Source of the DNA: an uncultured Clostridia bacterium
Lineage (GTDB): Bacteria; Bacillota; Clostridia; TANB77; CAG-508
Direction: 5' to 3'
DNA length: 64,000 nucleotides
NCBI GenBank assembly: GCA_947631745.1
Contig: CANRMM010000002.1
Coordinates: forward strand, 3,364 to 67,363
Shown: positions 2,678 to 40,657 of the stretch, one piece after another
How positions within the stretch are numbered: the first letter of the stretch is position 1
Layout: the number at the start of each line of letters is the position of its first letter
Made by a program: the position numbers and the translations under genes
Notes under the pieces: generated by a model
What the model was told of the DNA's origin: nothing
Database searches by the model: none
Seen by the model: the letters and a program-made list of their open reading frames with translations, nothing else

Positions 2678-4127
2678 GTTACAAGAAAAACTAAAAAATA
2701 AAGAGCTTACGAGTTATGAAATTACAAAAGCATATACAGACAGAATTGCTGAAAAAGAAAAAGATGTACAAGCTTTTGTAACAGATTTATCAGAGGTAGC
2801 TCTAAATCAAGCAAAGGAAATAGATGATAAAAGAAAAAAAGGAGAGATTACAAATAATTTAGCAGGTATTCCAATAGGAATAAAAGATATTATTTGTACA
2901 AAAGGTGTTAGGACAACTTGTAGTTCTAGAATGCTAGAAAATTTTATAGCACCTTATGATGCAACTGTTATGGAAAAAATTAATGAAGAGCATCTTATTG
3001 ATTTGGGAAAATTAAATATGGATGAATTTGCGATGGGAGGCTCTACAGAATATTCATATTTTAAGAAGACAAGAAATCCATGGAATTTAGATAAAGTACC
3101 TGGAGGTTCATCAGGAGGTTCTGCTGCAGCAGTTGCTGCTGGTATGGTACCTTGGGCTTTAGGAACAGATACAGGAGGTTCTATTAGACAACCAGCTAGT
3201 TTTTGTGGAATTGTTGGAATGAAACCAACTTATGGTCTTGTTTCTAGGTATGGTGTTGTGGCATTTGCTTCATCACTTGATCAAGTTGGACCTATGACAA
3301 AAGATGTAACAGATTGTGCAATGCTTTTAAATATTATTGCTGGTCATGATGAAAAAGATTCTACATCTGTGGATAATGGGGATAAAGACTATACAAAATC
3401 GCTTAAAGCTGATGTTAAAGGATTAAAAATAGGAATTCCAAAAGAATATTTTGGAGAAGGAATTAATCCAGAAGTAAAAGAAAAATTACAAGAAGCAATT
3501 GAAAGATATAAGAAATTAGGTGCTGTTGTTGAAGAATGTTCTTTAAATATTGCAGATTATGCATTAGCTACTTACTATATTATTGCTTGTGCTGAGGCCA
3601 GTTCAAACTTAGGTAGATTTGATGGAATCCGTTATGGATATCGTACAGAAAATTATACTAATTTAAAAGAATTATACCGTAATTCTAGAAGTGAAGGCTT
3701 TGGTGCAGAGGTAAAAAGAAGAATTATTTTAGGAACGTATGTACTTTCATCAGGATATTATGATGCATATTACAAAAAAGCACAACAAGTAAGAACTTTA
3801 GTAATGCAAGAATTTGCAAAATGTTTTGAAAAGTATGATGTACTTTTAACACCAACATCACCAACAGTAGCATTTGATATTGGTTCAAAATCAAATAATC
3901 CATTAGAGATGTATTTGGCAGATATATGTACGGTTTCTGTTAATATAGCAGGTCTTCCTGGAATTTCAATTCCTTGTGGAGTAGATAAAGAAGGAATGCC
4001 TATTGGAATGCAATTGATTGGTAATCGTTTTAGTGAGGAAATATTAATTAGAACAGCATATACTTTTGAACAAGATTTGAAATTTAGAGATAATTATCAA
4101 CCAAAATTCAAAGGAGGTGCAAGGTAG
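2643..4127 (+). CDS. gatA: Asp/Glu-tRNA amidotransferase subunit A
   Basis: Amidase signature [14 protein letters not shown]...[16 protein letters not shown]. Confidence 0.95.
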
Positions 4128-6220: not shown

Positions 6221-7183
6221 TTGATAGAAAATAAACAAGAAACAGGCGAAGAAAAAATGGAAAAAAGAAAATTGTTAATACCTAAAATAGATGTTGTTTT
6301 TCATTCTCTTTTTCGATCTAGTAAAGAAAAGTTAATAGGATATTTTATATCAAGTTTAATTCAAAAAAAGGTAAAGGTTATATATGTAGATAAAGATAGG
6401 CATTTGATGAGAAAATATCCAGAAGAAAAATTAGGCATTTTAGATTTACGTACAGAACTAGAAGGTGGAGTTATTTGTAATATAGAAGTACAATTGGCAA
6501 ATCCTGGGAATATTGTAGATCGAATATTATATTATTGGAGCAGAGCATTTGGTGAACAACTGAAAGAAGGAGATGAATACCAAGAATTAAATAAAACAAT
6601 AGGAATATTGATTGTAGATTTTAAATTGAAAGAAATGGAGGGAATAGAGAAATTAGGAACAAAATGGAAGATAATGGCAGAAGGAGAGGAAAATCGAATA
6701 TTGACAGAAAAGCTAGAATTAATTATACTAGAAATACCAAAAGCAAGAGAAATGGTAAAAATGGGGAAAAAAGATAAAATAGTGGAATGGCTAATGTTTT
6801 TGGATAATCCAAATAGTGTGGAGGTAACAAAAATAATGGAGGAGAACGAAGAAATAAAGGAAGCTGTGGAAGAATTAGAAGAAATTAGTCAAGACGAAGA
6901 ATTAAAAAGAGTAGCTTTTTTGAAAGAAAAATATATACGAGATGAAAAAAGTGCAAGAAGATATTATAAAGAACAAGGATTAGAAGAAGGTAGAATATTA
7001 GGAATAAAGCAAGGTGTAAAAGAAGGAATAAAAGAAGGAAAAAAAGAAGGAATAAAGGAAGGCAAAAAAATAAATACAGAGGAAATTGCAAAAAAAATGC
7101 TACAAAAAAATTTTCCAATAGAAGTGATTATGGAGATAACAAATTTAACAGAAGAAGAAGTTAAGAAGATTCAATCTAATTAA
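6221..7183 (+). CDS. Rpn-family recombination-promoting nuclease / PD-(D/E)XK putative transposase
   Basis: LIPKIDVVFHSLF...ILDLRTELEGGVICNIEVQL pattern of Rpn/YhgA (PDDEXK_2) proteins; C-terminal KEGIKEGKKEG repeats; SD AAAGGAG before TTG start (ATG 6257 alternative). Confidence 0.75.
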   Translation: MIENKQETGEEKMEKRKLLIPKIDVVFHSLFRSSKEKLIGYFISSLIQKKVKVIYVDKDRHLMRKYPEEKLGILDLRTELEGGVICNIEVQLANPGNIVDRILYYWSRAFGEQLKEGDEYQELNKTIGILIVDFKLKEMEGIEKLGTKWKIMAEGEENRILTEKLELIILEIPKAREMVKMGKKDKIVEWLMFLDNPNSVEVTKIMEENEEIKEAVEELEEISQDEELKRVAFLKEKYIRDEKSARRYYKEQGLEEGRILGIKQGVKEGIKEGKKEGIKEGKKINTEEIAKKMLQKNFPIEVIMEITNLTEEEVKKIQSN

Positions 7184-12852: not shown

Positions 12853-13131
12853 TTAGGTGAATACACATTATACATATTTTTATGTTTGTCAAATTAATTA
12901 TAAAGTGGATTATTAGGGGCATAAAAGAGAAAAACCTAATTTAATAGGACAAGCGTAATTTTAGAATAGCAAAGTTCTTTTAGAAATGAATATAATTGTT
13001 AGAAATTGTAAATTAAACAAATAATAAAAAAAATTGTAATTTTACAAAGGAGTAAAAAATTATTTAGGAAACAATATTGTAAGAAACTGGATATTATGGT
13101 AAAATGTAAACTAATGAAAATGGAGGTAAAT

Positions 13132-14367
13132 ATGTTGGAAAAAATCCCAAATCATTTATTAGAATTAATTAAAGAAGGAGAAAAAATATCAATAGAATTT
13201 AAAGAGGCTGGTGTAGCATTACCGGAAGACTTATTTGAAACTATATGTGCATTTCTAAATAGAAATGGAGGACATATATTTTTAGGAGTAAATAACAATG
13301 GAAAAATAACAGGAGTTTCAAAAGAACATATAGAAATGATGAAAAAAGATTTTGCTAATTTATGTAATAATCCACAAAAAATAAATCCCACGGTATATTT
13401 AAAAATTGATGAATATGAAATAGATAATTTGAGAATATTACATATATATGTGCATGAAAGTTCAGATGTTCATAAAACTAAAAATAGAATCTTTGATAGA
13501 AACGAAGATGGTGACTATGATATTACTCAAAATACGACTTTAGTTGCTAATATGTATTTGAGAAAGCAAAAAACTTATACTGAAAATAAGATATATCGAT
13601 ATGTAACGATAAATGATTTGAGAAAAGACCTGATAGAGAGAGCAAGGCAAATGGCCGTAAATAGAGCAGGAAATCATATATGGGAAACAATGACAGACTT
13701 AGAAATGCTAAAAAGTGCATCCTTATATGAAATAAACTATGAAACAGGAGAAGAAGGATTTACGCTTGCAGCGATACTATTATTAGGAAAAGATGATGTT
13801 ATACAATCTGTCTTACCACATCATAAGACAGATGCAATTTTAAGAGTAGAAAATGTAGATAGATATGATGACAGAGATGATATAAGAACGAATTTAATAG
13901 AAAGTTATGATAGATTAGTTGCATTTATAAGGAAACATTTAAGTGAAAAATTCTATATTGAAAATGATCAAAGAATAAATGTTAGAGATAAAATTGCAAG
14001 AGAAATTTGTGCTAATATACTTATTCATAGAGAGTATTCTAATCCATTTCCAGCAAAATTAATAATAGACAAACATTATATTAGAACTGAGAATGCCAAT
14101 AAGCCTAAAATGATAGGATGTATAAATATTACTGATTATGTTCCTTATCCTAAAAATCCTAAAATAGCAAAGTTTTTTAAAGAAATTGGTTTAGCAGACG
14201 AGTTAGGATCTGGAGTAAGAAATGTTGCCAAATATACTAAAATATATTCAGGTGGAATACCAATATTTAAAGAAGATGATATTTTTAAAACGGAAATATT
14301 AATATCAAGTGAAAAAAATAAAGAAATAGATATAACCGGCGATAAACCGGCGATAAACCGGCGATAA
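13132..14367 (+). CDS. AlbA_2 (Schlafen-like DNA-binding) + RecG-C-like (HATPase_c_4) regulator, truncated before its C-terminal winged helix
   Basis: ISIEFKEA...LNRNGGHIFLGVNNNGKITGV (AlbA_2 pattern); PKNPKIAKFFKEIGLADELGSGVRNV (HATPase_c_4 pattern); ends inside an 11-bp tandem repeat. Confidence 0.7.
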   Translation: MLEKIPNHLLELIKEGEKISIEFKEAGVALPEDLFETICAFLNRNGGHIFLGVNNNGKITGVSKEHIEMMKKDFANLCNNPQKINPTVYLKIDEYEIDNLRILHIYVHESSDVHKTKNRIFDRNEDGDYDITQNTTLVANMYLRKQKTYTENKIYRYVTINDLRKDLIERARQMAVNRAGNHIWETMTDLEMLKSASLYEINYETGEEGFTLAAILLLGKDDVIQSVLPHHKTDAILRVENVDRYDDRDDIRTNLIESYDRLVAFIRKHLSEKFYIENDQRINVRDKIAREICANILIHREYSNPFPAKLIIDKHYIRTENANKPKMIGCINITDYVPYPKNPKIAKFFKEIGLADELGSGVRNVAKYTKIYSGGIPIFKEDDIFKTEILISSEKNKEIDITGDKPAINRR

Positions 14368-14871: not shown

Positions 14872-16377
14872 CTAAATATTATATATATCCTTTTTTGCAA
14901 AATGACGAATAGCAATACCTAACAGTGCTATCTCATATATTAAACAAATGCATACTGAAAAAGGAAGTGTTAATACATTAATATCAGGTATTCGACCAAA
15001 TAAATAGATACTAAAATCCCAATTATTTGTTATAAAGTATTTAGCGATAGGAGTAAGTGCAGAAATTTCAGACCATTGAGCGATAACAGTACTGCAAATA
15101 AAAAAGATTATTAAAGTAAGAATCATTGTCATAACAGAGTGATTATTCATAACACTCATAAATATGCAAAATGTAACAATTATAAAATACATTGGCAATT
15201 TGCATAATAACAAAAGTAGTAAATAAACAAATAAATTTAAAGTAAATACGGAATTAGAAGTATAGTTATAACCAATGTAACCAATACTATAGCTATCAAA
15301 TCCAAAGATGATTCCACCAACAATATATTGTACTAAAATCATAAACAAAGTAGTTATTATAATTGTTATTACACAAGCTAAGATTTTTGAAATTAAAATT
15401 TGACTGCGTTTATGAGGCTTGGTAAGTAAATTCTTAATTGTTCCTTTATTTTTTTCTTCTGCTATGCTAGTGCAAGCTATATAAATTGCTATTGCCACAA
15501 TTACAATATCAAAATGTTTAAATGATCTTATCAAAGAAATTCTGGCATCAACTTTATTATGAGAGAGTACAGTAATTGCACTATCTGAAATATCATAATT
15601 AATTTTATTTTCCAAGGCATATTTATTTAAAGCAACATTTAATTTACAATTTTTTATTGTTTTATTATAAATGCTATCAGATTTATTGGATTTTAGACAA
15701 GATTCTAAAAGATATTGTTTCGATCTCCAATTACTTATGTAATCATTGAAAATATCATCATTAAAAGGAATATCATATTTTAATCGATATTCATATATTT
15801 CTATTTCAATATTCAAACTTTTCTTTTCATCAGAAGTAATAGAAGGGGATTCGGTTTTTTGACGTAAATTTTTAATTTTTAATGCAACAAATTCTTTCCA
15901 ATCATCATTATTTAAAGCTTGTACATATTGTTTATATATTTTTTGGGCTTCTTCATAATCACTTTTTTGAATATTAGAATTAGGATTTATTTCATAATCA
16001 ATTATAGTAGTCAAATTAGATTTTATATCTTGATAAAAATTTGTGGGAAAATCCTGAACATCATGACTGGTATTCTCTTCACCTAAAGCATATTTTTGCC
16101 AAGAATTTTCTGAATAACTGTTATATAGTTTACCAAATTCAATAGACAATTTTTGGGAAACATAAAACTTATCATTTTTATCCATGTTTTCGAAGGCTCG
16201 CTCGAGAGCATCAATATTAAAATCCAAAGGTCTAAAAAAAATTTTATTTTGATCAGGATTAGCATAATTAAATAAAGCAATGATAATAATGATGATGAGT
16301 AGCAATAAATAAAAACTTTTTTTCTTAAAAATTTTAATCAGTTCATTTTCAATTAACTTAATCAATGTCTGTACCAC
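14872..16377 (-). CDS. ABC-2 type exporter permease with large extracytoplasmic domain
   Basis: N-terminal TM, about 270-aa soluble loop, then EEKNKGTIKNLLTKPHKRSQIL and 5 TM segments; GTG start overlaps ATPase stop. Confidence 0.75.
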   Translation of the reverse strand: MVQTLIKLIENELIKIFKKKSFYLLLLIIIIIIALFNYANPDQNKIFFRPLDFNIDALERAFENMDKNDKFYVSQKLSIEFGKLYNSYSENSWQKYALGEENTSHDVQDFPTNFYQDIKSNLTTIIDYEINPNSNIQKSDYEEAQKIYKQYVQALNNDDWKEFVALKIKNLRQKTESPSITSDEKKSLNIEIEIYEYRLKYDIPFNDDIFNDYISNWRSKQYLLESCLKSNKSDSIYNKTIKNCKLNVALNKYALENKINYDISDSAITVLSHNKVDARISLIRSFKHFDIVIVAIAIYIACTSIAEEKNKGTIKNLLTKPHKRSQILISKILACVITIIITTLFMILVQYIVGGIIFGFDSYSIGYIGYNYTSNSVFTLNLFVYLLLLLLCKLPMYFIIVTFCIFMSVMNNHSVMTMILTLIIFFICSTVIAQWSEISALTPIAKYFITNNWDFSIYLFGRIPDINVLTLPFSVCICLIYEIALLGIAIRHFAKKDIYNI

Positions 16378-17086
16378 CTACCTTCTTAATAAAAGCATCT
16401 TCTAAGGTAGAATCTTTAGATGCAATTAATTTAAAATTATCAATTGTATCATCAGCAACAAGCTTACCATTTTTTATCGCAACAATTCGATTACATACTT
16501 TATCAATTTCACTTAGATTATGACTAGAAATTAAAATTGCAATTCCATTGTCAGATAACTTTTTAATGAGTTCTCTCATTTCAATAATTCCTTCAACATC
16601 AAGACCGTTGGTAGGTTCATCTAAAATTAAAAACTCAGGATGATTTAAAATAGCTTCTGCAATGCCTAATCTTTGTTTCATTCCAAGAGAATAGGTAGAA
16701 ACTTTATCTTTAATTCTATTTTCTAAGCCAACAATTTTTACGACTTCGTTAATTCGCTCTTTTCCAATATTTTTAAAGTTATTAGCAGCAATTTTTAAAT
16801 TATCATATCCAGACAAATACATATATGAAGCAGGGCTCTCAACAATGGCACCAACTTTATCAATAGCTTTTACAAAATCTTTTTGAATATCAAATCCATT
16901 AATCAAAACAGTTCCTTCTGTTATTTTAATAAGACCTAAAATTAGTTTTATAATTGTTGTTTTACCAGCACCATTAGCACCAATCAAACCAACTACATCA
17001 CCACTATTGATAGAAAAAGAAATATTTTCTACAATTACTTTATTCTTTATTTTTTTCTTTAAATTTTCACATTTTAATACTTCCAT
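16358..17086 (-). CDS. ABC transporter ATP-binding protein
   Basis: Walker A GANGAGKTT, signature LSLGMKQR, Walker B FLILDEP; start MEVLKCENL behind AGGAGGA. Confidence 0.9.
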   Translation of the reverse strand: MEVLKCENLKKKIKNKVIVENISFSINSGDVVGLIGANGAGKTTIIKLILGLIKITEGTVLINGFDIQKDFVKAIDKVGAIVESPASYMYLSGYDNLKIAANNFKNIGKERINEVVKIVGLENRIKDKVSTYSLGMKQRLGIAEAILNHPEFLILDEPTNGLDVEGIIEMRELIKKLSDNGIAILISSHNLSEIDKVCNRIVAIKNGKLVADDTIDNFKLIASKDSTLEDAFIKKVGGTDID

Positions 17087-17096
17087 AACTTTCCTC

Positions 17097-18057
17097 CTAT
17101 GATTCATTTACAATATCTTTTTCTTTAAAGACTTTTAATATGATGACGGTAAGTAGTAAAAAAATTATGACAGAAATGATTAGCATAGAAATAATATTTC
17201 CACTTAACTCACCATATATATATTGGCTTAAATCCCAAGTATAAATACTTCCGCATATAATTTAAAAATATTTCTGTTTTTGATAATAAATATAGTCCTA
17301 AAGAAACTAATATAGAGAGAGGAGTGTTACCAGTAGTAATACCTAGCAATATAATGACTAAATTTAAAATCATAAACATACAAAGTTTAGTACCAAGTAT
17401 AGATAACATATAAAGACATAGGTTCATTGTAACGACAGTATTTGATGAAAAATCATAACGAATAGCATCTAAATTATAACTATCAAAACCAAAAAAAAGT
17501 CCACCTAATAAAAACTGAAATAGAATGATAAAAATAGTAATACCAATACATATACTAAATGAAGTTATTAATTTTGCAAAAAATATGGCGATTCGCTTAT
17601 GAGGTTTAGTAAGTAAATTTTTGATAGTTCCTTTTTGATATTCATCTGAAAAAATAGTACTAGCTACATAGAGAACAATAAAGATAATAGCAATTTCGAA
17701 AAGATTAAATACCTTCATAAGAAGAATCCTAGCATCTGCTGGAAGAGATACATTTTTATTTTCTGAATTTAAAAGAATATTATATTGGATATTATTGTCA
17801 ATTGCATATTTTTCCAAAGCAATTCTTTCAATAACAGTAGAATATTTTTCGGGCTCAGAAAAATTTTCATAATTTTCTAGATAAAAAGTATCTTGTTTAT
17901 ATGATCTTTCATATAAAGTTTGAATAGAATCCTGAGAATTAGTAATTTTTAAAAATAAATTATAGACAGAAATGAGGGCAATTGCTATGAAAAATAAGAT
18001 GTAAATATTCTTATTCTTAAATATCTTTATGATTTCATTTTTTACTAAATTTAACAT
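17097..18057 (-). pseudogene. ABC-2 permease (first gene of exporter operon), frameshifted in an (AT)5 run
   Basis: ORF 17209-18057 stops right after ATATATATAT (17214-17223); next frame continues GELSGNIISMLIISVIIFLLLTVIILKVFKEKDIVNES* to 17097, matching the C-terminal TM of the family. Confidence 0.65.
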
Positions 18058-18265: not shown

Positions 18266-18796
18266 ATGGAAGAACTAGTAGAGAAAGCAAGAAAAGGAGA
18301 TAAAAAAGCTTTTACAGAACTTATGGTATTATATGAAAGCGATTTATATAAGATTGCAAGGTCAAGGCTGAAAGACGAAAATGATATATGTGATGCAGTG
18401 CAAGAAACAATGATTATTGCTTTTCAATCTATTAAGAAACTGAAAAATCCCAAGAGTTTTAAATCATGGATTATAAAAATTTTGATTAATCAAAGTAATA
18501 AAATTTATAGATATGAAAATAAAAGAAAAATAGTATCTTTTGAGGAAATAGAAAACGATATGATAGATGAATTTAATATTGAAGATACTGAACAAATACT
18601 AGATTTTAATTTTTTATGTAAAAATTTAAAATATGAAGACAGAATTATAATGGTGCTGTATTACATAGAAAAGTTTACAGATAAGGAAATAGGAGAAATA
18701 CTAAATTTAAAGGAAAGTACCGTAAGAACTAAAAGGTTTAGAGTTTTACAAAAGATGAAAGATAGTATAAAAGGAGGAAAGAAGATATATGAATGA
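18266..18796 (+). CDS. ECF-type sigma-70 family RNA polymerase sigma factor
   Basis: Region 2 (DAVQETMIIAFQSIKKLKNPKSFKSWIIKILINQ) and region 4 HTH (EKFTDKEIGEILNLKESTVRTKRFR). Confidence 0.85.
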   Translation: MEELVEKARKGDKKAFTELMVLYESDLYKIARSRLKDENDICDAVQETMIIAFQSIKKLKNPKSFKSWIIKILINQSNKIYRYENKRKIVSFEEIENDMIDEFNIEDTEQILDFNFLCKNLKYEDRIIMVLYYIEKFTDKEIGEILNLKESTVRTKRFRVLQKMKDSIKGGKKIYE

Positions 18797-19970
18797 GATA
18801 GAAGGAAATGAATATTATGAACTAGAACAAAGGTTATATCATGATTTGAATTTAGAAATAGAGATTCCAGATAAATTTAAAAGAATAATAAGGGAAGGGC
18901 CAAGAGAGAATAAAAAATATAGTAAATTTGCAAAAATAGTCGCAACAATTTGTGCTACGCTTTTAATAGGAGCTGGAATTGTATATGCAGGAGTTAGCAT
19001 ATACGAAAACATTTGGAAGAAACCAGAGAAGATAGAGGGATTTTATAGTGGAGAAGGAGAAAATATATATCCAATTACTGAAGAAGAAAAAAGCAGTGTT
19101 ATATCTGAATCAGATGCCAAAAAGAGAGCAGAGCAAATATTAAAACAATTTGGTTGTGAAAATGAAAAAATAAAATCGATCGAAATTGAAAATTTGGCAG
19201 TAGATTATGATTTATTATGGCATATAAGAACAGATAAAAATACAGAAATTTTAATTGATGCAAAAAATACAGATAATTTTAGGATAATGCTCGAAAACGA
19301 ATTAAGTGAGGTAGAAAAATATGAAATAACAGAAAAAGAAGCTGAAGAAATAGCAAAAAACATTTGCAGAAAATTAGGGTATAATATAGATGAATACAAT
19401 GATATAAGAATATTTCATAATGGACTTTTAGATGAGAATATTAAAATGTGGAAAATAGTTTTCTACAAAGAATATAATGAAATTGTAAATCCCTATGAAT
19501 CTATACGTATTGGTTTTATTCCTAAAACTAATAAAATTTGTTATTTCTTTGTGAGTAATAGGGAATTTGAAAACAATCCAATTGAGATAAGAGAAGAACA
19601 GGCAAAAGAAATAGTACTAAAAGAAGAAGAAAAAATAACTATGAAATATAAAGAAATAAAGAATATAGAAACTGAATTAGGCATTATTGAAACAAATGGT
19701 AATGCATATTTGAGAGTAACAGATTATAAAAAATATCGTGAACAACTTTATAAAAGCTATCCAGAAGAAGACGTTGCATTATATCGTACAGAAAGTCATA
19801 TTAGAAGAGCATGGATAGTTACTATAGAATACGATGTTTTGGAAGATACAGAAGAAAGTAATGATATTAATGAAAGGTATTATTCATATTTTGTTGATGC
19901 AACAACAGGAGAAATAATAGGTGGAGAATTATACTATCAAAACATAAAGAAGCTTTTATATGAATATTAA
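18789..19970 (+). CDS. membrane-anchored putative anti-sigma factor with PepSY-like extracytoplasmic repeats
   Basis: ATGAATGA overlap with the sigma gene; single TM (IVATICATLLIGAGIVYAGV); three repeats with PepSY-like pattern, ending YFVDATTGEIIGGE. Confidence 0.55.
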   Translation: MNEIEGNEYYELEQRLYHDLNLEIEIPDKFKRIIREGPRENKKYSKFAKIVATICATLLIGAGIVYAGVSIYENIWKKPEKIEGFYSGEGENIYPITEEEKSSVISESDAKKRAEQILKQFGCENEKIKSIEIENLAVDYDLLWHIRTDKNTEILIDAKNTDNFRIMLENELSEVEKYEITEKEAEEIAKNICRKLGYNIDEYNDIRIFHNGLLDENIKMWKIVFYKEYNEIVNPYESIRIGFIPKTNKICYFFVSNREFENNPIEIREEQAKEIVLKEEEKITMKYKEIKNIETELGIIETNGNAYLRVTDYKKYREQLYKSYPEEDVALYRTESHIRRAWIVTIEYDVLEDTEESNDINERYYSYFVDATTGEIIGGELYYQNIKKLLYEY

Positions 19971-19982
19971 TAACTGAAAGTT

Positions 19983-20010
19983 GGGGTGCCTGAAGCGGGC
20001 ACCCCATTTT
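19983..20010 (+). terminator. G+C-rich terminator
   Basis: GGGGTGCC tgaagc(g) GGCACCCC followed by ATTTTT. Confidence 0.8.
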
Positions 20011-20038
20011 TCCATAAACTAAAGTAATAGCTATTGGA

Positions 20039-20053
20039 AGAAACTAGAGGAGC
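20039..20053. repeat. left arm of perfect 15-bp inverted repeat
   Basis: AGAAACTAGAGGAGC; exact reverse complement at 20711-20725. Confidence 0.9.
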
Positions 20054-20106
20054 AAAATTAGCTTTTACTCAGAGGTTATTTATGCTTTTGATTCGAATAA
20101 ATTAAA

Positions 20107-20685
20107 TTATCTCCAAGCATCTTTCATCAAATAATACCAATAAGTAACAGTACAGGGGAGATTATCGTCATAGTTTCCATTGGCATCAGTAATACGGAAG
20201 TAAATTTGAACTTCTTGATCTCTAGTCACAGGGGCTGATCCAGTTAAAACAGTACCCGTTTTCCCTACAGAGGAAATGCCTTCACCACCAAGCAGAACAG
20301 AAGAGGTATAGGCTTTTAGAATTTGGACAGTCATTTTAACTGACTTGCTACAGCTATATTCGGCATAAATGGCAACGGAATAACCGGTAACACCGATTTT
20401 TTTAACAGGAGTTACGTTATTTCCCTCCATTGTAAACGTACCGACATTAATCCAACCAGTCACATTATTCCAGGTTTCCACTTCAGAAATAGAAGAAACC
20501 GAAGAAAGAACTGTGGAAGTGGGAAGTGTAGCAATGGCTTCTCCGTCACTGTTAAAAGTGATAGTCTGCTTTTCGCTCACAATCACCGAAGGGTTATTGG
20601 CATCGGTAGATTCTGAAGCAGAAGAGGCAGGAACTACGGAGAAACACATAATTGTCGCTAACAAGAGTGCTAAAAACCGTTTCAT
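20107..20685 (-). CDS. secreted protein of unknown family (higher G+C than surroundings)
   Basis: Start MKRFLALLLATIMCFSVVPASSASE (signal peptide) behind AAAGGAG; beta-rich, 2 Cys; codon usage visibly less A+T-biased than neighbours. Confidence 0.6.
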   Translation of the reverse strand: MKRFLALLLATIMCFSVVPASSASESTDANNPSVIVSEKQTITFNSDGEAIATLPTSTVLSSVSSISEVETWNNVTGWINVGTFTMEGNNVTPVKKIGVTGYSVAIYAEYSCSKSVKMTVQILKAYTSSVLLGGEGISSVGKTGTVLTGSAPVTRDQEVQIYFRITDANGNYDDNLPCTVTYWYYLMKDAWR

Positions 20686-20710
20686 AGTAAAAATACTCCT
20701 TTCATAGTTG

Positions 20711-20725
20711 GCTCCTCTAGTTTCT
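20711..20725. repeat. right arm of perfect 15-bp inverted repeat
   Basis: GCTCCTCTAGTTTCT = reverse complement of 20039-20053. Confidence 0.9.
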
Positions 20726-20744
20726 ATGTGCAAAGTTTGCACAT
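20726..20744. promoter_or_regulatory. 19-bp perfect palindrome (candidate operator)
   Basis: ATGTGCAAA g TTTGCACAT, directly abutting the right inverted-repeat arm, in the 5' region of the secreted-protein gene. Confidence 0.6.
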
Positions 20745-20760
20745 GCTTAATATAACATAA

Positions 20761-20767
20761 TTCGACA
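20761..20767 (-). promoter_or_regulatory. perfect Spo0A-box (TGTCGAA)
   Basis: Plus strand TTCGACA = rc of 0A-box consensus TGNCGAA; lies between the Spo0A-like gene and the secreted-protein gene. Confidence 0.5.
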
Positions 20768-20785
20768 ATATTAGATATAAAGAAA

Positions 20786-20813
20786 AATGTATCTTAATGT
20801 ATCTTGATGTATC
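20786..20813. repeat. three direct repeats with 10-bp phasing
   Basis: AATGTATCTT AATGTATCTT GATGTATC; overlaps the stop codon of the Spo0A-like gene. Confidence 0.7.
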
Positions 20814-21570
20814 AAACATAAAAGCTACGAATTATATTTTTATGAACATTTAACAGAACGATACTTATAATAGTTTTTATATTAGGTTTGTGTGGTGTTG
20901 TTAGAGAAAAATAGTTAGTTAATTTGTCTTCAGGGCAGTTATAATACATTGCTTCAGTAGCTCTAACGATATTACATTTTATATTATTACTTGTTTGATT
21001 ATATCTTTGAGCGATTGTTGGATAAACATACTTATTTAAGTTTTCTAGTAGTGCGTCACCTTGAGAAAAAATCATATATATTACATCAATTAAATATTGG
21101 GTACCTTTATGAGAGACATCATAGCTTAGGTATAAAAGTTCATCTGTAATTAAACTTTTTATGTTATGTATTTTATATTTTTCTTCCTTAATTAAAATTA
21201 GTTCATTTATTTGTGATACTATTTGCTCAGTATTTAATGTATTGGGTAATAATTTGTAAATCATCGAATTATCTTTTAACACAGGGTTACTAATTAAATC
21301 CATTTCACCGCAAGTGACAAGAATAGAATTATTATATTGATTTTGATGTTCAGAAACTAATCTGTTAAGTATTTCAATTCCATCATAGTTAGGCATTTTT
21401 AAATCCAGTAATACAATATCTATATTATTTGCAGAACTTAAAAGTTCTAAAGTTTCCTTCCCATCGACTGTAATATTAGAAACTCTTATATAATTAGAAG
21501 TTGCATTAATAGATGACATTAAACTTCTTGCATAATCAACATTATTGTTTGCTATTAATAAATTTAGCAT
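20812..21570 (-). CDS. Spo0A-like response regulator paralog (degenerate receiver + Spo0A_C DNA-binding domain)
   Basis: Receiver: LLIANNN (Asn-Asn where the acidic pair DD is expected), VLLDLKMPNYDG keeps the phospho-Asp position; C-terminal HKGTQYLIDVIYMI...YPTIAQRYNQTSNNIKCNIVRATEAMY matches the Spo0A C-terminal pattern. Confidence 0.75.
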   Translation of the reverse strand: MLNLLIANNNVDYARSLMSSINATSNYIRVSNITVDGKETLELLSSANNIDIVLLDLKMPNYDGIEILNRLVSEHQNQYNNSILVTCGEMDLISNPVLKDNSMIYKLLPNTLNTEQIVSQINELILIKEEKYKIHNIKSLITDELLYLSYDVSHKGTQYLIDVIYMIFSQGDALLENLNKYVYPTIAQRYNQTSNNIKCNIVRATEAMYYNCPEDKLTNYFSLTTPHKPNIKTIISIVLLNVHKNIIRSFYV

Positions 21571-21719
21571 AAAATCATCTCCTATATATAAGAGACATTG
21601 AGAGTATAAAATAATTTCAAAAAATGTAGTATTTTGTATTTTTTTGTCGATTTAATAAATAAAAATAATGAAACTAAAAGATGATAATATATAATCTATT
21701 ATATAGAAGGGAGAAGAAA

Positions 21720-22244
21720 ATGAAAAAATTAAAAGAAAATACTGATGAAAATGATGAAATTTGTTATATATTTGAAAAATATATGCTTGATATGTATAAA
21801 GTAGCTAAATCTCGACTATATGATGAAGAAGACGTGTATGATGCGATACAGGAAACAGGCTATAGATTATACAAAAATATGAAGAAAATTAAACAACCTG
21901 AAAAAATAAAAATATGGCTATTAAAAGTTTTAATTAATGAATGTAACAAGATATATAACAGAAAAAAGAAAGAAGTAAAATTACAAGAGAAGATTTATGA
22001 AGAAGAATTAAAGAATGTAAATAGTAATTATAGTAATGAAGAAATAGAGTTCGATTTTATAATTAAAAGTCTGAACAAAGATGACAGACTAATTTTTTCT
22101 TTATATTATGGAAATAAATTAACAATAAAGGAAATCTCAAAAATTATAGGAAAAAATGAGAACACAATAAAGACCAGAATGAAACGAGCAAAGGAATATA
22201 TTAAAGATAGGTTAGAGAAAGGAGAAGAAAAATATGAAAAATAG
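21720..22244 (+). CDS. ECF-type sigma-70 family sigma factor
   Basis: DAIQETGYRLYKNMKKIKQPEKIKIWLLKVLINE (region 2), LTIKEISKIIGKNENTIKTRMKRA (region 4). Confidence 0.8.
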   Translation: MKKLKENTDENDEICYIFEKYMLDMYKVAKSRLYDEEDVYDAIQETGYRLYKNMKKIKQPEKIKIWLLKVLINECNKIYNRKKKEVKLQEKIYEEELKNVNSNYSNEEIEFDFIIKSLNKDDRLIFSLYYGNKLTIKEISKIIGKNENTIKTRMKRAKEYIKDRLEKGEEKYEK

Positions 22245-23358
22245 TGAATTAGATATGAAATTATATAATTACTATAATAAGATAGAAATGTCTCCTAAAT
22301 TTTACACTTTGCCTAAAAGTATAGCAAAAACAAATTATTATAAAAATAATAAGACATATATTTTGAAATTATCAATAGCTTGTATGTTACTATTGATGAT
22401 ATGTACAGTAACTTTCGGAAAAAACATATATATGTCAATTCTAGAAGCTATGGCTGAAGTTCATGAGGGGGTATCAGTAGCAATTAATAATGATTACTAT
22501 GCTGAGATAGAGATGGAATATGCAAATTCGAACAAAATAAAGTTAAAAGTAAGTGAATTTATTATGGATGACTATAATTTGTTTTTAGGATTTAAAATAG
22601 AAAATAATCGTATGGAAGAAATAAGAAATATAAAGTTTCAAGATATGACTATAACAGATGAGTATAATAATCTAATATTTTGCGATGATAAAGAAGCTTA
22701 TGATAAATATTGTAAAGAAAATAATATGCGAAGTGAAAGAATAACAGAATATAGTTTAACCAATAGGGGATATGGAATAGAGCAAGTAAAACAAGATGGT
22801 AATGAATTGGAAGTGTTGTATAAATTATGCTCAGATGGATATCCAAAAAGTAAAGAATTGCATATACAAATTCATACAATAGAAGCTAAAGGAGAAAAGG
22901 GAGAAACATTGAAACTAGATGGTATATGGAAAATGAAAGTAAATGTACCAAAAGAATTTTATGAGAGAAATTATATTACTTATCAAGTAAAAGATGGTAG
23001 TGACGCTAAATATGGAATGCATATAGACAATATGGTAGTAACTGATACTCAAACTGTTGTATCATATAAAGGAAATTATAATATTGATAATATTACATTT
23101 AATAATACTGAAGAAGAAATATTAGATTTTATTGATAATAATCGTAGCTTTTATGATGAAATAAAACTAAAAAATGAAAAAGGTGAAATATTTAATACTG
23201 CTTCAATGACAGACGCATTTGGTACATATTATTCAAAGGAAAACGAACAATTTGAAGGAAGGTTACCATTTGAACTAACGAAATATGATATAACAGATAA
23301 GATATATTTGATAATTATAAAAAATGGAGAAGAAAAAGTGATAAATTTGGAGAGGTAA
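22234..23358 (+). CDS. putative anti-sigma factor (DUF4179-like, single TM)
   Basis: Overlaps the sigma gene stop; TM LKLSIACMLLLMICTVTF; extracytoplasmic beta-rich domain. Confidence 0.5.
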   Translation: MKNSELDMKLYNYYNKIEMSPKFYTLPKSIAKTNYYKNNKTYILKLSIACMLLLMICTVTFGKNIYMSILEAMAEVHEGVSVAINNDYYAEIEMEYANSNKIKLKVSEFIMDDYNLFLGFKIENNRMEEIRNIKFQDMTITDEYNNLIFCDDKEAYDKYCKENNMRSERITEYSLTNRGYGIEQVKQDGNELEVLYKLCSDGYPKSKELHIQIHTIEAKGEKGETLKLDGIWKMKVNVPKEFYERNYITYQVKDGSDAKYGMHIDNMVVTDTQTVVSYKGNYNIDNITFNNTEEEILDFIDNNRSFYDEIKLKNEKGEIFNTASMTDAFGTYYSKENEQFEGRLPFELTKYDITDKIYLIIIKNGEEKVINLER

Positions 23359-24007: not shown

Positions 24008-25177
24008 TCATTGCTTGATATATGGTTTTAAAATTGGTGTTCCTCCAATTATCTCTCCCGTTGTAGCATCTATATAATAAGCATAAAATCTATACATTAC
24101 TCCATCTTTGTCTACAATCCTATTTTTTGTTTCCCCTATATCGTACTCTATCGTAACCTTCCAAACTTTTCTTACTAAAGCCTCTGTACGAAATTCAATA
24201 TAATCTTCTGGAGGATAGTTTTGTTCTAATTGTCTTTTATACTTAGAATAATCCATACTTCTAAAATATGCATCACCATTCATTCTAACAATATCTAAAG
24301 ATGCACTTGTATTTATAATTTTATATCCAATGTCAATCTTGTTTTCATTATTTATGGCTGTTTCAATTGCTTTTTCTTTATCAATGTCTACTGGATTATT
24401 ATCATATTCAATATCATATATAGTAAATCGATATAATTCATTTATTTCTGGAATAAAACCAATATTAATTGATTCATAAGGATTCACAATTCCATCATAT
24501 GTTCTTTTAAAATCAACATACCATATATAAGAATCACTTTCCGAAAGGAGATTTGTACTTATTTTCAAATCATCATATTTTGTTGAATCATATCCATACT
24601 TTTTGCAAAGTTCTTTTGCTGTTATTTCTGCATCCTCCTTCGTAGTTCTATAGTTTTTTATATCTTTATGTAATATATTATTAAATGTTACACTTAAATA
24701 TTTTCCGTCTCCTGCATCAAATGATAAAAATATATTATTTTCTGTTTCAATGCACCATATCACGTCATAATTATCAGGATAATTTTGAAGTTCTATTGAC
24801 TTTATCTTCTCATTTTTATATCCAAATTTTTCTAATATTTTTTTTGCATTTTCTCTTGCCTGCTTTTCTGACATTATTCCTTCATATTTTTTATTTTCAC
24901 TTATGTCCGTAATATTATTTTCTTCCGAATAAAATCCGATTGTTTTCTCTGGCTCTTTCCATATCTTATTAGTTATAGCAGTTCCTGCATATACAATCCC
25001 AACTGATAATACTAAACTAATACTAGCTATTATAGCTACTTTTCGTATTGGATAACCCAATACTTTCTTTTTTTCTTTATCTGTATTTAAACTTTCTTGA
25101 ATAACAGTTTTAAATTCACTTGGAATTTCAATTTTTGAATTTAATTCACGATATAATCTTTTATCTAACTCGTCCAT
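24008..25177 (-). CDS. putative anti-sigma factor, paralog of 18789-19970
   Basis: Same architecture and many identical blocks (IWKEPEK, IVNPYESI.IGFIP, YYIDATTGEIIGG); start ATG 25177 behind AAAGGAG. Confidence 0.55.
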   Translation of the reverse strand: MDELDKRLYRELNSKIEIPSEFKTVIQESLNTDKEKKKVLGYPIRKVAIIASISLVLSVGIVYAGTAITNKIWKEPEKTIGFYSEENNITDISENKKYEGIMSEKQARENAKKILEKFGYKNEKIKSIELQNYPDNYDVIWCIETENNIFLSFDAGDGKYLSVTFNNILHKDIKNYRTTKEDAEITAKELCKKYGYDSTKYDDLKISTNLLSESDSYIWYVDFKRTYDGIVNPYESINIGFIPEINELYRFTIYDIEYDNNPVDIDKEKAIETAINNENKIDIGYKIINTSASLDIVRMNGDAYFRSMDYSKYKRQLEQNYPPEDYIEFRTEALVRKVWKVTIEYDIGETKNRIVDKDGVMYRFYAYYIDATTGEIIGGTPILKPYIKQ

Positions 25178-25713
25178 TTTCTTCACTCCTTTCTAAAATA
25201 TTTTTAATTTTTTGCTTTGCTCGTGTCCTTTTAGTCGTTACCGTAGTTTCTTTCAAGTTTAATATTTTTCCTATTTCTTTATCTGTAAATTTTTCTATAT
25301 AATATAAAATAATAATAGCTCTATCTTCATATTTTAAATTTTTACACATAAAATCAAAATCTAGTAACAAATCTATATCTTCTATATTAGTTGACTCAAT
25401 TAGTCCAGTTCTTTCTGAATCATCAAAAGGTATTATTTTATTTTGACTTTTTTGCTTGTAAATTTTATTGGTTTGATTTATCAAAATTTTAATTATCCAA
25501 GTTTTAAAATATATAACGTGTTTTAATTTTTTAATGGATTTAAAGGCTATTAAAATAGTTTCTTGTACTGCATCATATATATCTTCATTGTTATTTAATC
25601 TCATTTTTGCAACTCTATATAAATCCTTTTCTAATAATAGCATGAGAGTAGTAAAAGCTTCTTTATTGCCGCATTTTTGCTTCTGTTACTAGTTCTTCAA
25701 TATTTTCTTCCAT
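25161..25713 (-). pseudogene. ECF sigma factor paralog of 18266-18796, frameshifted in an A5 run
   Basis: ATG 25713 gives MEENIEELVTEAKMRQ*; the neighbouring frame continues KCGNKEAFTTLMLLLEKDLYRVAKMRL..., colinear with paralog KARKGDKKAFTELMVLYESDLYKIARSRL; shift at AAAAA (25674-25678). Confidence 0.7.
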
Positions 25714-26035: not shown

Positions 26036-26158
26036 ATGGAAGTATTAAAATGTGAAAATTTAAAGAAAAAAATAAAGGATAAGGTAATTGTAGAAAATAT
26101 TTCTTTTTCTATTAATCGTGGTTTTATTAAGAAGGTAGGTGGCACAGACATTGATTAA
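26036..26158 (+). pseudogene. internally deleted ABC ATPase remnant (40 codons)
   Basis: MEVLKCENLKKKIKDKVIVENISFSINRG|FIKKVGGTDID*: the first 27 aa and last 11 aa of the 16358-17086 protein joined directly; Walker A through the D-loop is missing. Confidence 0.8.
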
Positions 26159-27665
26159 GTTAATTGAAAATGAACTAATTAAAATTTTTAAGAAAAAAAG
26201 TTTTTATTTATTGCTACTCATCATCATTATTATTATTGTTTTATTTAACCATGCTAATCCTGATCAAAATCATACTTTAGAGTTTCCTAAAACTTCAGAT
26301 ATGGCTGTTAATCTTTGGGAACAAAACTTAAAAAATAAAGCTGTAAATGATGAAAGTTATATAAATAGTGAAGGTTATATTCAAGACAAATATTCTATTG
26401 AATTTGGTAAGCTATATAACAGTTATCCAGAAAATTCTTGGCAAAGATATGCCTTAAATGATGAACGTAATAGTATATCTGTCCCATTGTTTCCCACAGA
26501 TCTTCATCAAGATATTGAACCTAATTTAAAAACAATAATTGATTATGAAATAAATCCTAATTTTAATATTCAGAAAAATGATTATGAAGAAGCAAAAAAA
26601 ATATATGAACAATATATGCAAGCTTTAAATAATGACGATTGGAAAGAATATGTTGCACTAAAAATTAAGAACTTACGTCAAAAAAGTGAAAGTTCTTCTA
26701 CTACTTCTGATGAAAAGAAAAGTTTGAATATTGAAATAGAAATATATGAATATAGATTAAAATATGATATTCCTTTTAATGATGATATTTTCAATGATTA
26801 CATAAGTAATTGGAGAGAGGAGCAGTATCTTTTAGAATCTTTTTTAAAAATGGGTACTTCTGATGAGTTTTATTATCAAACGACACAAATTTGTAAATTA
26901 AATATTGCTTTAAGTAAATATGCCTTGGAAAATAAAATTGAATATGATATTTCAGATAGTGCAATTACTGTACTCTCTCATAATAAAGTTGATGCCAGAA
27001 TTTCTTTGATAAGATTATTTAAACATTTTGATATTGTAATTGTTGCAGTAGCAATTTATATATCTTGCACTAACATAACCGAAGAAAAAAATAAAGGAAC
27101 AATTAAAAATTTACTTACCAAACCTCATAAACGTAGTAAAATTTTAATTTCAAAAATCTTAGCTTGTATAATAACAGTTATAATAACTACTTTGTTTATG
27201 ATTATTGTACAATATGTTGTTGGTGGAATCATCTTTGGATTTGATAGTTACAATATTGATTACATTGGTTATAACTATACTTCTGATTCTGTATTTACTT
27301 TGAATTTATTTGTTTATTTACTACTTTTGTTATTATGCAAATTACCAATGTATTTTATAATTGTTACATTTTGCATATTTATGAGTGTTATAAATAAGCA
27401 TTCTATTATGGCAATGATTCTTACTTTAAGCATTTTTCTAATCCGTACTGATATTGAGAGATATTCTAGATTTCCTGTATTTACTCCTATTGCTAAATAT
27501 TTTATAACAAATAATTGGGATCTTAGTATATTTTTATTTGGACGAATACCTGATTTTAATGTATTAACACTTCCTTTTTCAATATTTGTTTGTTTAATCT
27601 ATGAGATACTACTATTAATTATTGCTATTCGTCATTTTTCAAAAAGGGATATATATAATATTTAG
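26139..27665 (+). CDS. ABC-2 permease, close paralog of 14872-16377
   Basis: GTG start; 3 differences in the first 44 residues versus the paralog; same TM layout. Confidence 0.75.
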   Translation: MAQTLIKLIENELIKIFKKKSFYLLLLIIIIIIVLFNHANPDQNHTLEFPKTSDMAVNLWEQNLKNKAVNDESYINSEGYIQDKYSIEFGKLYNSYPENSWQRYALNDERNSISVPLFPTDLHQDIEPNLKTIIDYEINPNFNIQKNDYEEAKKIYEQYMQALNNDDWKEYVALKIKNLRQKSESSSTTSDEKKSLNIEIEIYEYRLKYDIPFNDDIFNDYISNWREEQYLLESFLKMGTSDEFYYQTTQICKLNIALSKYALENKIEYDISDSAITVLSHNKVDARISLIRLFKHFDIVIVAVAIYISCTNITEEKNKGTIKNLLTKPHKRSKILISKILACIITVIITTLFMIIVQYVVGGIIFGFDSYNIDYIGYNYTSDSVFTLNLFVYLLLLLLCKLPMYFIIVTFCIFMSVINKHSIMAMILTLSIFLIRTDIERYSRFPVFTPIAKYFITNNWDLSIFLFGRIPDFNVLTLPFSIFVCLIYEILLLIIAIRHFSKRDIYNI

Positions 27666-39857: not shown

Positions 39858-39908
39858 TTGCTGGAAATTGGTTTATACTAATAAAAAAATATTAGTGGTG
39901 TGTATAAA

Positions 39909-40253
39909 ATGAAAATTGCTTTAATTGGTATTATAGTGGGAATTGTTAGTGGGATGTTTGCATCTGGAGGAGGACTTATCCTTGTTCCAATATATACTTA
40001 TTTTATGAAATTAGAGGAAAAACAAGCAAGAGCAACATCTTTATTTTGCATTTTGCCGATGGTTATTGTTACTGCAATTTTATATGGGACAAGTAATTTT
40101 ATTAATTGGCAAATTGGAATTAAATGTGCTATAGGAGGAGTGATTGGAGGAATTATAGGTAGTAAATTACTGAATATAATACCTATTAAGTATTTGCAAC
40201 TTTTTTTTATACTATTTTTATTTTATGCAGGTATTAGCATTTTATTAAAGTAG
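39909..40253 (+). CDS. TauE/SafE-family anion exporter, half-size subunit 1
   Basis: IGIIVGIVSGMFASGGGLILVPI typical TauE repeat; only about 115 aa. Confidence 0.7.
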   Translation: MKIALIGIIVGIVSGMFASGGGLILVPIYTYFMKLEEKQARATSLFCILPMVIVTAILYGTSNFINWQIGIKCAIGGVIGGIIGSKLLNIIPIKYLQLFFILFLFYAGISILLK

Positions 40254-40267
40254 GCGAAAGGAATAGT

Positions 40268-40657
40268 ATGGAGATTATTATTGGTATTATTGCTGGTATT
40301 ATAGGAGGTTTAGGTATGGGAGGAGGTACTATATTAATTCTTCTCCTATCCTTATTTTTAGATGTAGAACAACATATTGCGCAAGCAACAAATGTTATTT
40401 TTTTTATTCCAACAGCTATTTCAGCTATTATTGTAAGTATAAAAAATAAAAATATTGATATGAAATTAGGTTTACCAATTATTGTGTGGGGATGTATAGG
40501 AGCTTTTATAGGAGCCAAAATATCAACTAAAATGAATGTACCACTTTTAAGGAAATTTTTTGGAGTATTTTTAATATTTATAGCTTTCTATCAATCATAT
40601 GAGTATATAAAAGAAAAAAGGAGACATACTAATGAAAAAAAAGAAAAAGGAGGATGA
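40268..40657 (+). CDS. TauE/SafE-family anion exporter, half-size subunit 2
   Basis: IIAGIIGGLGMGGGTILILLLSL second TauE repeat encoded as a separate ORF. Confidence 0.7.
   Translation: MEIIIGIIAGIIGGLGMGGGTILILLLSLFLDVEQHIAQATNVIFFIPTAISAIIVSIKNKNIDMKLGLPIIVWGCIGAFIGAKISTKMNVPLLRKFFGVFLIFIAFYQSYEYIKEKRRHTNEKKEKGG

Follow-up and report, generated by a model that had tools for sequence, protein, structure and literature searches.

Inverted repeats around a secreted-protein gene of gut Clostridia most likely form a long-range RNA helix

What do two perfect inverted repeats around a single bacterial gene signify: sites at which the DNA is rearranged, or strands of a structure in the RNA transcribed from it? 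The question is raised by a 64,000-nt stretch of DNA from an uncultured Clostridia bacterium (assembly GCA_947631745.1, contig CANRMM010000002.1, positions 3,364 to 67,363; in the following, the window), in which two 15-nt arms enclose a gene for a secreted protein of 192 amino acids. The original prediction favoured an invertible ON/OFF switch and named two alternatives: the arms might bound a non-autonomous mobile element as its terminal inverted repeats, with the gene as passenger, or they might pair as parts of the 5' untranslated region (UTR) and the 3'UTR within the mRNA. It is the last of these that is favoured by covariation among relatives, by an asymmetry in the remaining mismatches and by the transcript context. 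We consider it most likely that the arms pair with each other as a long-range helix within one monocistronic mRNA and are not DNA recombination sites.

The left arm, AGAAACTAGAGGAGC, lies at 20039-20053 on the plus strand, and a recount confirmed that it recurs as its exact reverse complement, GCTCCTCTAGTTTCT, at 20711-20725. With one mismatch, the match stretches to 18 nt (20039-20056 and 20708-20725), and the window holds no exact copies of the arm other than these two. As had been described, the 657 bp between the arms consist of one minus-strand coding sequence (CDS; 20107-20685) together with its Shine-Dalgarno sequence (SD), and the promoter elements lie outside. The control elements previously placed just beyond the right arm, namely a palindrome, a box resembling a 0A box and phased repeats, are all there, and they would lie there because no single-stranded stretch of the transcript precedes the 5' arm.

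The length of the arms is unremarkable by itself. In Markov-simulated windows of the same composition, 0.72 perfect 15-nt inverted repeats are expected at a spacing of 50-1000 nt, and at least one is found in 37% of the simulations. A perfect 15-nt inverted repeat with at least seven G or C, as here, occurred in none of 200. Furthermore, when the complementarity between 5' and 3' flanks was scored for 156 open reading frames (ORFs) from the window and the related loci, the window gene ranked joint top with a score of 27, against a median of 14; this score is common only to the window gene and one member of its family, and the other top ranks are mostly held by family members as well. As judged from the comparison among relatives, the repeat is not a random one.

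The relatives that underlie this comparison were gathered by an exact-protein look-up and from GTDB genomes and metagenomes, and viral contigs were searched as well. Those from GTDB belong to metagenome-assembled genomes of uncultured Clostridia and to Clostridium sp. CAG:273, and those from metagenomes come from the human gut wherever a label is given. The comparison set comprises 23 distinct loci with both flanks (individual loci are denoted by L numbers), including relatives detected only by profile, with E-values of 1e-7 and 2e-5. All 23 have complementarity of 12-17 nt at the same two places: the 5' arm begins 20-58 nt ahead of the ATG, and the 3' arm 8-54 nt past the stop codon. Two of the loci have a bulge of 1-2 nt, and one has a mismatch inside the stretch. 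Many loci share an arm core, GAAACTAGAGG / CCTCTAGTTTC, and among them the outer pairs differ in a compensating manner, reading GGAGC/GCTCC in the window, GGCTTA/TAAGCC in L011, GGTC/GACC in L017, GAGAAA/TTTCTC in L019 and AGCTAGAAGTTC in L024 and L032. In five others, arms of unrelated sequence occupy the same place: GGAAATTTGAAATGAA in L005, AATGGCTA(TA)GGGGC in L035, TATCAGAAACCT in L036, GAGAGGAAAGGGA in L037 and GTTTAAAGGCAGAT in L038.

This pattern was quantified on a MAFFT alignment of the concatenated 5' and 3' flanks. RNAalifold returned the arm helix as the sole consensus structure, with 14 pairs, of which nine show double compensatory changes. Paired cells amount to 95.4%, compared with 81% in column shuffles, none of which reached the observed value in 500 trials, and with 36-55% when the partner strand was slid by 1-3 columns. 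Likewise, the complementarity between the flanks of one locus averages 22 and falls to a mean of 14 when the 3' flanks are swapped among loci. The mismatches that remain inside the helices are informative, too. Under symmetric scoring, in which all mismatches are penalised equally, the transition-type mismatches comprise eight G·U on the coding strand and no A·C (binomial p of about 0.004). Since an A·C mismatch is a wobble pair on the other strand, a bias towards G·U only is expected of a sense RNA and not of DNA sites.

The arms are embedded in a constant context. In every distinct locus, the parts follow one another in the order promoter, 5' arm, SD, CDS, 3' arm and terminator. In most loci, a hairpin stands directly before the 5' arm, with a gap of 0-2 nt; its stem differs in sequence and covaries, and its loop comprises between 3 and about 20 nt. 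Wherever a promoter can be recognised, this hairpin falls at the predicted start of transcription. Upstream of this hairpin, a -10 box is found at a distance of 4-7 nt in the five loci measured (the window, L011, L012, L017 and L026). On the other side of the gene, a hairpin abutting the 3' arm and a terminator are present in most relatives, and of the 20 whose 3' flank is long enough, most show a terminator hairpin and U-tract at the equivalent place. A strong SD is kept in nearly all relatives. The arms are accordingly predicted to be the first and last single-stranded stretches of a monocistronic mRNA. Two other interpretations of these elements were considered and rejected. The 19-bp palindrome of the window might have been a DNA operator, which was rejected on account of the covarying stem and the variable loop of its counterparts; and a mimicry of SD and anti-SD, suggested by AGAGGAG and CUCCUC in the window arms, was dropped because the arms of many relatives lack any GGAG.

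The 3' arm also has a neighbour of its own. A 12-nt palindrome, AACT[AT]A[ACT]TAGTT, which provides stop codons in all three frames on both strands, is found in 14 of the 23 loci (L005, L011, L012, L017, L018, L021-L026 and L030-L032; for instance at 1732-1743 in L017), 0-4 nt ahead of the 3' arm, and at no other place in 205 kb. This palindrome and the arms do not covary, and in the window it is absent or degenerate.

In the window, all parts of the predicted transcript lie on the minus strand. The 5' hairpin is the 19-bp palindrome ATGTGCAAAGTTTGCACAT (20726-20744), predicted to lie at or within a few nucleotides of the transcription start; upstream of it, the -10-like TATATT (20749-20754) aligns with the TATAAT of relatives. 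The 5' arm, AGAAACUAGAGGAGC in the mRNA, occupies 20711-20725, that is, positions -40 to -26 from the ATG, and is identified by its exact complement, the folds and the covariation. It is followed after 7 nt by the strong SD GAAAGGAG (20696-20703), outside the helix, and by the CDS, assigned from its ORF and translation. The 3' arm, GCUCCUCUAGUUUCU in the mRNA (20039-20053), begins 54 nt past the stop codon, and a stem-loop at 20011-20038 separates it from the intrinsic terminator hairpin at 19982-20006, the predicted 3' end. This last hairpin is terminator-like on both strands and may be regarded as a single G+C-rich terminator for the gene and the convergent anti-sigma unit; its U-tract is good for the anti-sigma operon only.

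Structure prediction places the arm helix within this transcript consistently. The full window transcript of 773 nt folds with a minimum free energy (MFE) 5.4 standard deviations better than that of shuffled sequences (z = -5.4), and the arm helix, the 5' hairpin, the 3' stem-loop and the terminator hairpin are all found in both its MFE and its centroid fold. The 3' arm is paired in both folds with a mean pair probability of 0.97. The arm duplex of the window comprises 15 bp at -25.1 kcal/mol, and those of the other loci, at 12-17 nt, span -15.7 to -25.7 kcal/mol. In all 18 full-length transcripts that were folded, the helix attains mean pair probabilities of 0.82-0.998. An Rfam scan of 19800-21000 with E-values up to 1 gave only sub-threshold chance matches.

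Taken together, we hold it to be very probable that pairing of the arms is under selection at the RNA level. What the helix might do is suggested by known mRNA structures. RNase J1 and RppH act from a single-stranded 5' end, and a free 3' end is likewise a point of attack. The stabiliser leaders of ompA, aprE and ermC impede 5'-end-dependent decay by a hairpin at their extreme 5' end, which acts alone and has no 3' partner; in rRNA precursor stalks, the 5' flank pairs with the 3' flank, and the resulting helix surrounds an entire functional RNA; these stalks are RNase III substrates and longer than the window helix. To our knowledge, no description exists of either as a unit evolving together with a family of protein-coding genes.

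The closest parallel is the hbs mRNA of Bacillus subtilis, in which a 14-nt arm just past the 5' hairpin pairs with a fully complementary stretch just before the terminator at -19 kcal/mol (Braun, Durand & Condon 2017, PMC5737220). This pairing restricts RNase Y cleavage in the leader, as proven by compensatory mutations (PMC5737220). Both cases concern a Firmicute monocistronic mRNA with structured ends (in the family, as predicted from promoter and terminator motifs), an arm of about 14 nt after the 5' hairpin with its partner before the terminator, similar energies (-19 kcal/mol in hbs versus -16 to -26 kcal/mol in the family) and a strong SD left outside the helix. They differ in that gene and sequence are unrelated, that the hairpin here stands at the predicted 5' end with an extra stem-loop abutting the 3' arm, and that the support here is natural covariation over a diverged protein family, whereas in hbs it is mutagenesis. 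We regard the window helix as an independently evolved interaction of the hbs type.

Other long-range pairings in bacterial transcripts are less similar. In icaR of Staphylococcus aureus, a UCCCC in the 3'UTR pairs with the SD, blocks translation and makes an RNase III site, and this pairing is not conserved even in S. epidermidis (PMC7821165). With icaR and with the 5'-3' helix of RNAIII/hld, the window shares a pairing between 3'UTR and 5'UTR within one bacterial transcript (PMC7821165). Unlike in icaR, however, the SD lies outside the helix, by 7 nt in the window and by about 6-35 nt across loci, and the helix is conserved throughout the family. Anti-SD pairing of the icaR type was ruled out as a model for the family, as the SD is never in the helix. 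In B. subtilis, long-range anti-SD pairing is common in vivo, acts over hundreds of nucleotides and affects decay; the anti-SD sequences are inhibitory, pair with the ribosome-binding site and are selected against (Gill et al. 2025 preprint, PMC12697547). By contrast, the window helix avoids the ribosome-binding site and appears to be selected for.

Based on the analogy with hbs, we propose that the helix acts as a stabilising end-clamp. The transcript would begin at the 5' hairpin (20744-20726) and continue through the 5' arm, the strong SD and the 192-codon ORF to the 3' arm, some 50 nt beyond the stop codon, and then reach one more stem-loop and the terminator. By pairing, the arms would close the whole ORF in a loop, and with the 5' hairpin abutting the closing helix, and this in turn the 3' stem-loop and terminator, neither end of the mRNA would offer a single-stranded entry. 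Such a clamp would limit 5'-end-dependent and endonucleolytic RNases such as RNase J1 and RNase Y as well as 3' exonucleases. Translation would not be blocked, because the SD lies outside the helix. The result would be a long-lived message that takes on its protected form only after the full-length transcript is complete. Of the stabilising role as such we are modestly confident, and the complete proposal, closing helix and end-clamp together, seems to us somewhat better supported than its negation.

A more far-reaching variant appears doubtful to us: the hairpin, helix, stem-loop and terminator might constitute a dedicated mRNA 'end-cap' module that co-evolved with the secreted-protein family while its sequence turned over completely, and that has roles beyond slowing decay, for instance by bringing the stop codon beside the SD for re-initiation on a closed-loop mRNA, or by forming a junction for an RNA-binding protein in storage or localisation. 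In such a module, the 12-nt palindrome with its stops in three frames would guard the helix from ribosomes that read through.

Several points weigh against the end-clamp proposal. The complementarity that covariation reveals would be expected equally of recombination sites homogenised by exchange, so that the RNA and DNA readings are separated only by the G·U asymmetry, which amounts to eight events, by the fixed order of promoter and gene and by the transcript context. Orientation was judged from assemblies and contigs, and a rare inversion may occur. The ends of the transcript are predictions from promoter and terminator motifs; in the window, a consensus promoter scan does not call the promoter, and the U-tract of the terminator is poor on the strand of the gene. 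In vivo, the modelled 15-bp helix would have to form over a distance of 650 nt while local folding and ribosomes compete with it. Finally, the stabilising function is drawn by analogy, and the helix could equally be a target of RNase III.

This last possibility, in which the helix is a processing or regulatory site rather than a protective clamp, is the chief competitor, and we consider it a possible though less likely explanation. In one version, RNase III cuts the helix and thereby matures the message from read-through transcripts, as with the flanking stems of rRNA; in another, cleavage by RNase III triggers decay, as in icaR; in a third, the stop codon is brought near the SD and terminating ribosomes re-initiate in a closed loop. 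Every piece of evidence for RNA pairing fits these versions equally well. In many relatives, moreover, the gene is co-directional with an anti-sigma or regulator gene and directly downstream of it, which makes read-through plausible, and the closed loop would be served by the distances of 8-54 nt from stop codon to 3' arm and of about 6-35 nt from SD to 5' arm. However, helices of 12-17 bp are generally below the size of typical RNase III substrates, the SD is never within the helix as it is in icaR, and in most loci with enough flank the gene has its own promoter and terminator flush with the structure, which leaves excision uncalled for.

Explanations at the level of DNA, together with chance, appear improbable even when combined. 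The inversion switch would require a site-specific recombinase encoded elsewhere that inverts 20054-20710 and thereby causes phase variation. Invertible switches such as those of Clostridioides difficile cwpV and flgB and the 'invertons' of gut bacteria do consist of short inverted repeats around a segment between a promoter and its target, and the window resembles them in that exact 15-nt repeats enclose a CDS with its promoter outside; recombination itself could also keep the arms complementary, and the orientation of the gene relative to its neighbours varies by lineage, for instance between the window and L017 or L018. The known switches, however, invert promoter or leader segments of 150-300 bp, need a tyrosine or serine recombinase and show both orientations in reads and strains. 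Here, all 23 distinct loci have the promoter-proximal, or 'ON', order, so that a comparison among relatives proposed for detecting inversion brought up no locus with the opposite orientation across the arms. The native junctions in the window read CTATTGGAAGAAACTAGAGGAGCAAAATTAGC and CATAGTTGGCTCCTCTAGTTTCTATGTGCAAAG, and inversion would turn them into CTATTGGAAGAAACTAGAGGAGCCAACTATGAAAGGAG and AAAGCTAATTTTGCTCCTCTAGTTTCTATGTGCAAAG. Four Logan/ENA assemblies cross both arms unbroken, and gene order is unchanged in the contigs read among those listed for the identical protein (4 of 7) and for the protein P0009 (6 of 23). Between the sigma/anti-sigma operon and the regulator gene, either orientation of the gene occurs, depending on the lineage. 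The gene and the anti-sigma gene converge in the window, L014, L019, L020, L028 and L029, are co-directional in L011, L012, L017, L018, L022, L024-L027 and L032-L034, and diverge in L005; wherever orientation differs, promoter, hairpin and terminator have moved together with the gene, and the arms are therefore not the breakpoints. Nor do arms that covary freely, and are wholly replaced between relatives, suggest a fixed recognition site, and the mismatches are G·U on the sense strand only. The further copies of the 15-mer and the recombinases for which a search had been suggested did not turn up in the window, where no integrase, resolvase or invertase domain was found in the 57 ORFs with 110 amino acids or more. 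We therefore judge an inversion switch to be very unlikely.

A slighter chance still is left to the idea that the arms are two DNA sites for one looping regulator, such as the Spo0A-like protein or the extracytoplasmic function (ECF) sigma factor encoded nearby, or a mere chance match. Many relatives do share the core GAAACTAGAG, and a perfect repeat of this length is not rare in AT-rich windows, as stated above. Yet L005, L037 and L038, which have homologous regulators, have unrelated arms that are still complementary, DNA sites would not confine mismatches to G·U, and chance fits neither the G+C content of the repeat, unmatched in the simulations, nor its presence at every locus. Least probable of all are terminal inverted repeats. 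The arms do enclose just one gene, whose G+C content exceeds that of the flanks, and conjugation genes (TraG/VirD4, TraX) lie near some relatives. The 5 nt beside the two arms, however, are unlike (TTGGA and ATGTG), and there is thus no target-site duplication; conservation continues beyond both arms into the 5' hairpin and promoter on one side and the 3' stem-loop and terminator on the other; and the 15-mer occurs only twice in the window, with one arm pair per locus. Within the loci, the 10-mer core does not occur away from these genes except for one chance match inside a 624-aa CDS of L025. Relatives were sought in plasmid, phage and viral-contig collections without a match, and the G+C excess is a family property in nearly every host.

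If the RNA helix is indeed the correct explanation, nature has carried out the compensatory-mutation experiment itself: a helix that closes the whole ORF occupies an equivalent position in all relatives examined and has outlasted total replacement of the arms, changes in gene orientation and three types of promoter (sigma-A consensus, ECF-type and response-regulator-dependent). The bacterial 5'UTR-3'UTR pairings named in the cited literature are RNAIII/hld, icaR and hbs only, and whether such pairing extends to other genes has been raised as a question (PMC7821165). Compared with these earlier cases, the present one stands out by its family-wide covariation, by the enclosure of the entire ORF and by its persistence under the three promoter types, in an uncharacterised family of secreted proteins of gut Clostridia. 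Its natural variants are ready for testing how end-to-end pairing affects mRNA decay and translation in Firmicutes. They also call for caution in pipelines that search for invertons, as short inverted repeats flanking a gene can be RNA structure.

The protein itself was described as bearing a signal peptide, rich in beta structure and of no recognised family, and our searches and an AlphaFold2 model agree with this. It has an N-terminal signal peptide, and the model reaches a mean predicted local distance difference test (pLDDT) score of 78, with core residues 70-190 above 90; this core is confidently modelled as a beta jelly-roll or sandwich. Pfam, NCBIfam and PADLOC have no family for it, and a profile search of the PDB returned nothing below an E-value of 0.28. 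Foldseek found weak, generic matches to jelly-roll folds and folds like those of carbohydrate-binding modules (CBMs), namely CBM6/36, the C-terminal domain of Pgp3 and Cry domain III, with template modelling (TM) scores of 0.3-0.45. The family appears to be small: a collection of 5.8 billion proteins yielded 10 relatives at 33-53% identity, and a profile search of 1.84 billion cluster representatives gave only 139 matches.

The gene had been called compositionally foreign. It is indeed richer in G+C than its surroundings, with 0.41 compared with about 0.25 in both flanks, and with 0.34 compared with 0.13-0.21 at third codon positions (GC3). The same excess, with GC3 about twice that of the neighbours, is found in nearly all relatives, whose own genomes have 21-30% G+C, and therefore is a property of the family, not a mark of recent import; on these grounds the excess was rejected as evidence of recent transfer. 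The coding regions of the family fold better than their dinucleotide shuffles, with a mean z of -3.0 compared with -0.9 for control segments and values of about -7 in L014 and L022. Stable folding of the coding region may be part of the reason for the G+C excess.

With regard to transcription, the promoters of the family fall into three types. L011, L012 and L026 have the promoter TTGACA-17-TATAAT. An ECF-like promoter, TGAAAC-N16/17-(C)GTCTA, precedes the gene in L014 (about 160-200), L019 (about 395-440) and L028. A weak -35 element with phased G[AT]TACA[AT] repeats characterises the window, L005, L013, L017, L018, L022, L023 and L031. In the window, these repeats are three direct copies of GATACAT in a 10-bp phase on the minus strand (20787-20813), the last of which overlaps the stop codon of the upstream gene. 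Its -35 is weak, and we infer that the promoter depends on an activator. A candidate is the product of the upstream gene, which has the same direction (20812-21570): an orphan response regulator that joins a receiver domain to a C-terminal DNA-binding domain of the Spo0A kind and scores far under the cut-off of the Spo0A equivalog. Among the 19 loci tabulated, eight have two or three repeats in a 10-bp phase just upstream of a weak -35, and all eight have a gene for a Spo0A_C-type regulator adjacent or in the cluster. The phased repeats are missing from L011, L012 and L026, which have the consensus promoter and in which no Spo0A_C regulator gene was detected. This distribution suggests that the Spo0A-like regulator activates the gene through the phased repeats, and transcription in the window is probably driven by the neighbouring regulator on the three GATACAT copies. 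In L038, two copies of TGTATC represent the same motif on the other strand.

The box resembling a 0A box, TTGTCGAA, lies in the promoter spacer of the window gene (20761-20768, minus strand) and recurs in that of L025 (about 3925-3935), with the similar sequences TATATTAA / TAATATTAA downstream; no gene for a Spo0A-like regulator was detected in the 8.5 kb that the L025 locus spans. A literature search on Spo0A-like orphan regulators found nothing relevant. In the closest clade to the window (L014, L019 and L028/L029), the ECF-type promoter, whose motif is absent from the window, precedes the same 5' hairpin, which suggests that transcription of the gene in these loci is driven directly by the ECF sigma factor encoded next to it.

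The ECF-type sigma factor of the window is encoded together with a putative anti-sigma factor of 393 amino acids in the convergent operon at 18266-19970, and further sigma/anti-sigma pairs follow at 21681-23358 and 24008-25643. Within 13 kb, these three paralogous pairs, whose sigma factors are 37-61% identical, are interleaved with genes for ABC-2 type transporters (14872-18057 and 26139-27665). A neighbourhood of three parts, comprising an ECF-type sigma factor with an anti-sigma-like protein of about 385 amino acids, the secreted jelly-roll protein and the Spo0A-like regulator, is kept as far as the distant L037 and L038, and the orientation of its middle gene differs by lineage.

The rest of the window is the ordinary chromosome of a spore-former of low G+C, with gatAB, hpf, a sortase gene, ctsR-mcsAB-clpC, metK, murE, dpaA, uppP and type IV pilus genes. 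Among the ORFs scanned, the sole gene resembling a mobile element encodes a transposase of the PD-(D/E)XK nuclease family (6221-7183; PDDEXK_2, E=1e-40). Two adjacent short ORFs (39900-40253 and 40268-40657) match the C-terminal and then the N-terminal half of the TauE/SafE exporter profile, in swapped order; this may reflect the splitting or rearrangement of one gene, or a family made up of two pieces. Lastly, a protein with a Schlafen/AlbA_2 domain is encoded at 13096-14367; it matches the PADLOC model of an Argonaute-associated SIR2-type protein weakly (E=4e-6) and may be related to defence.

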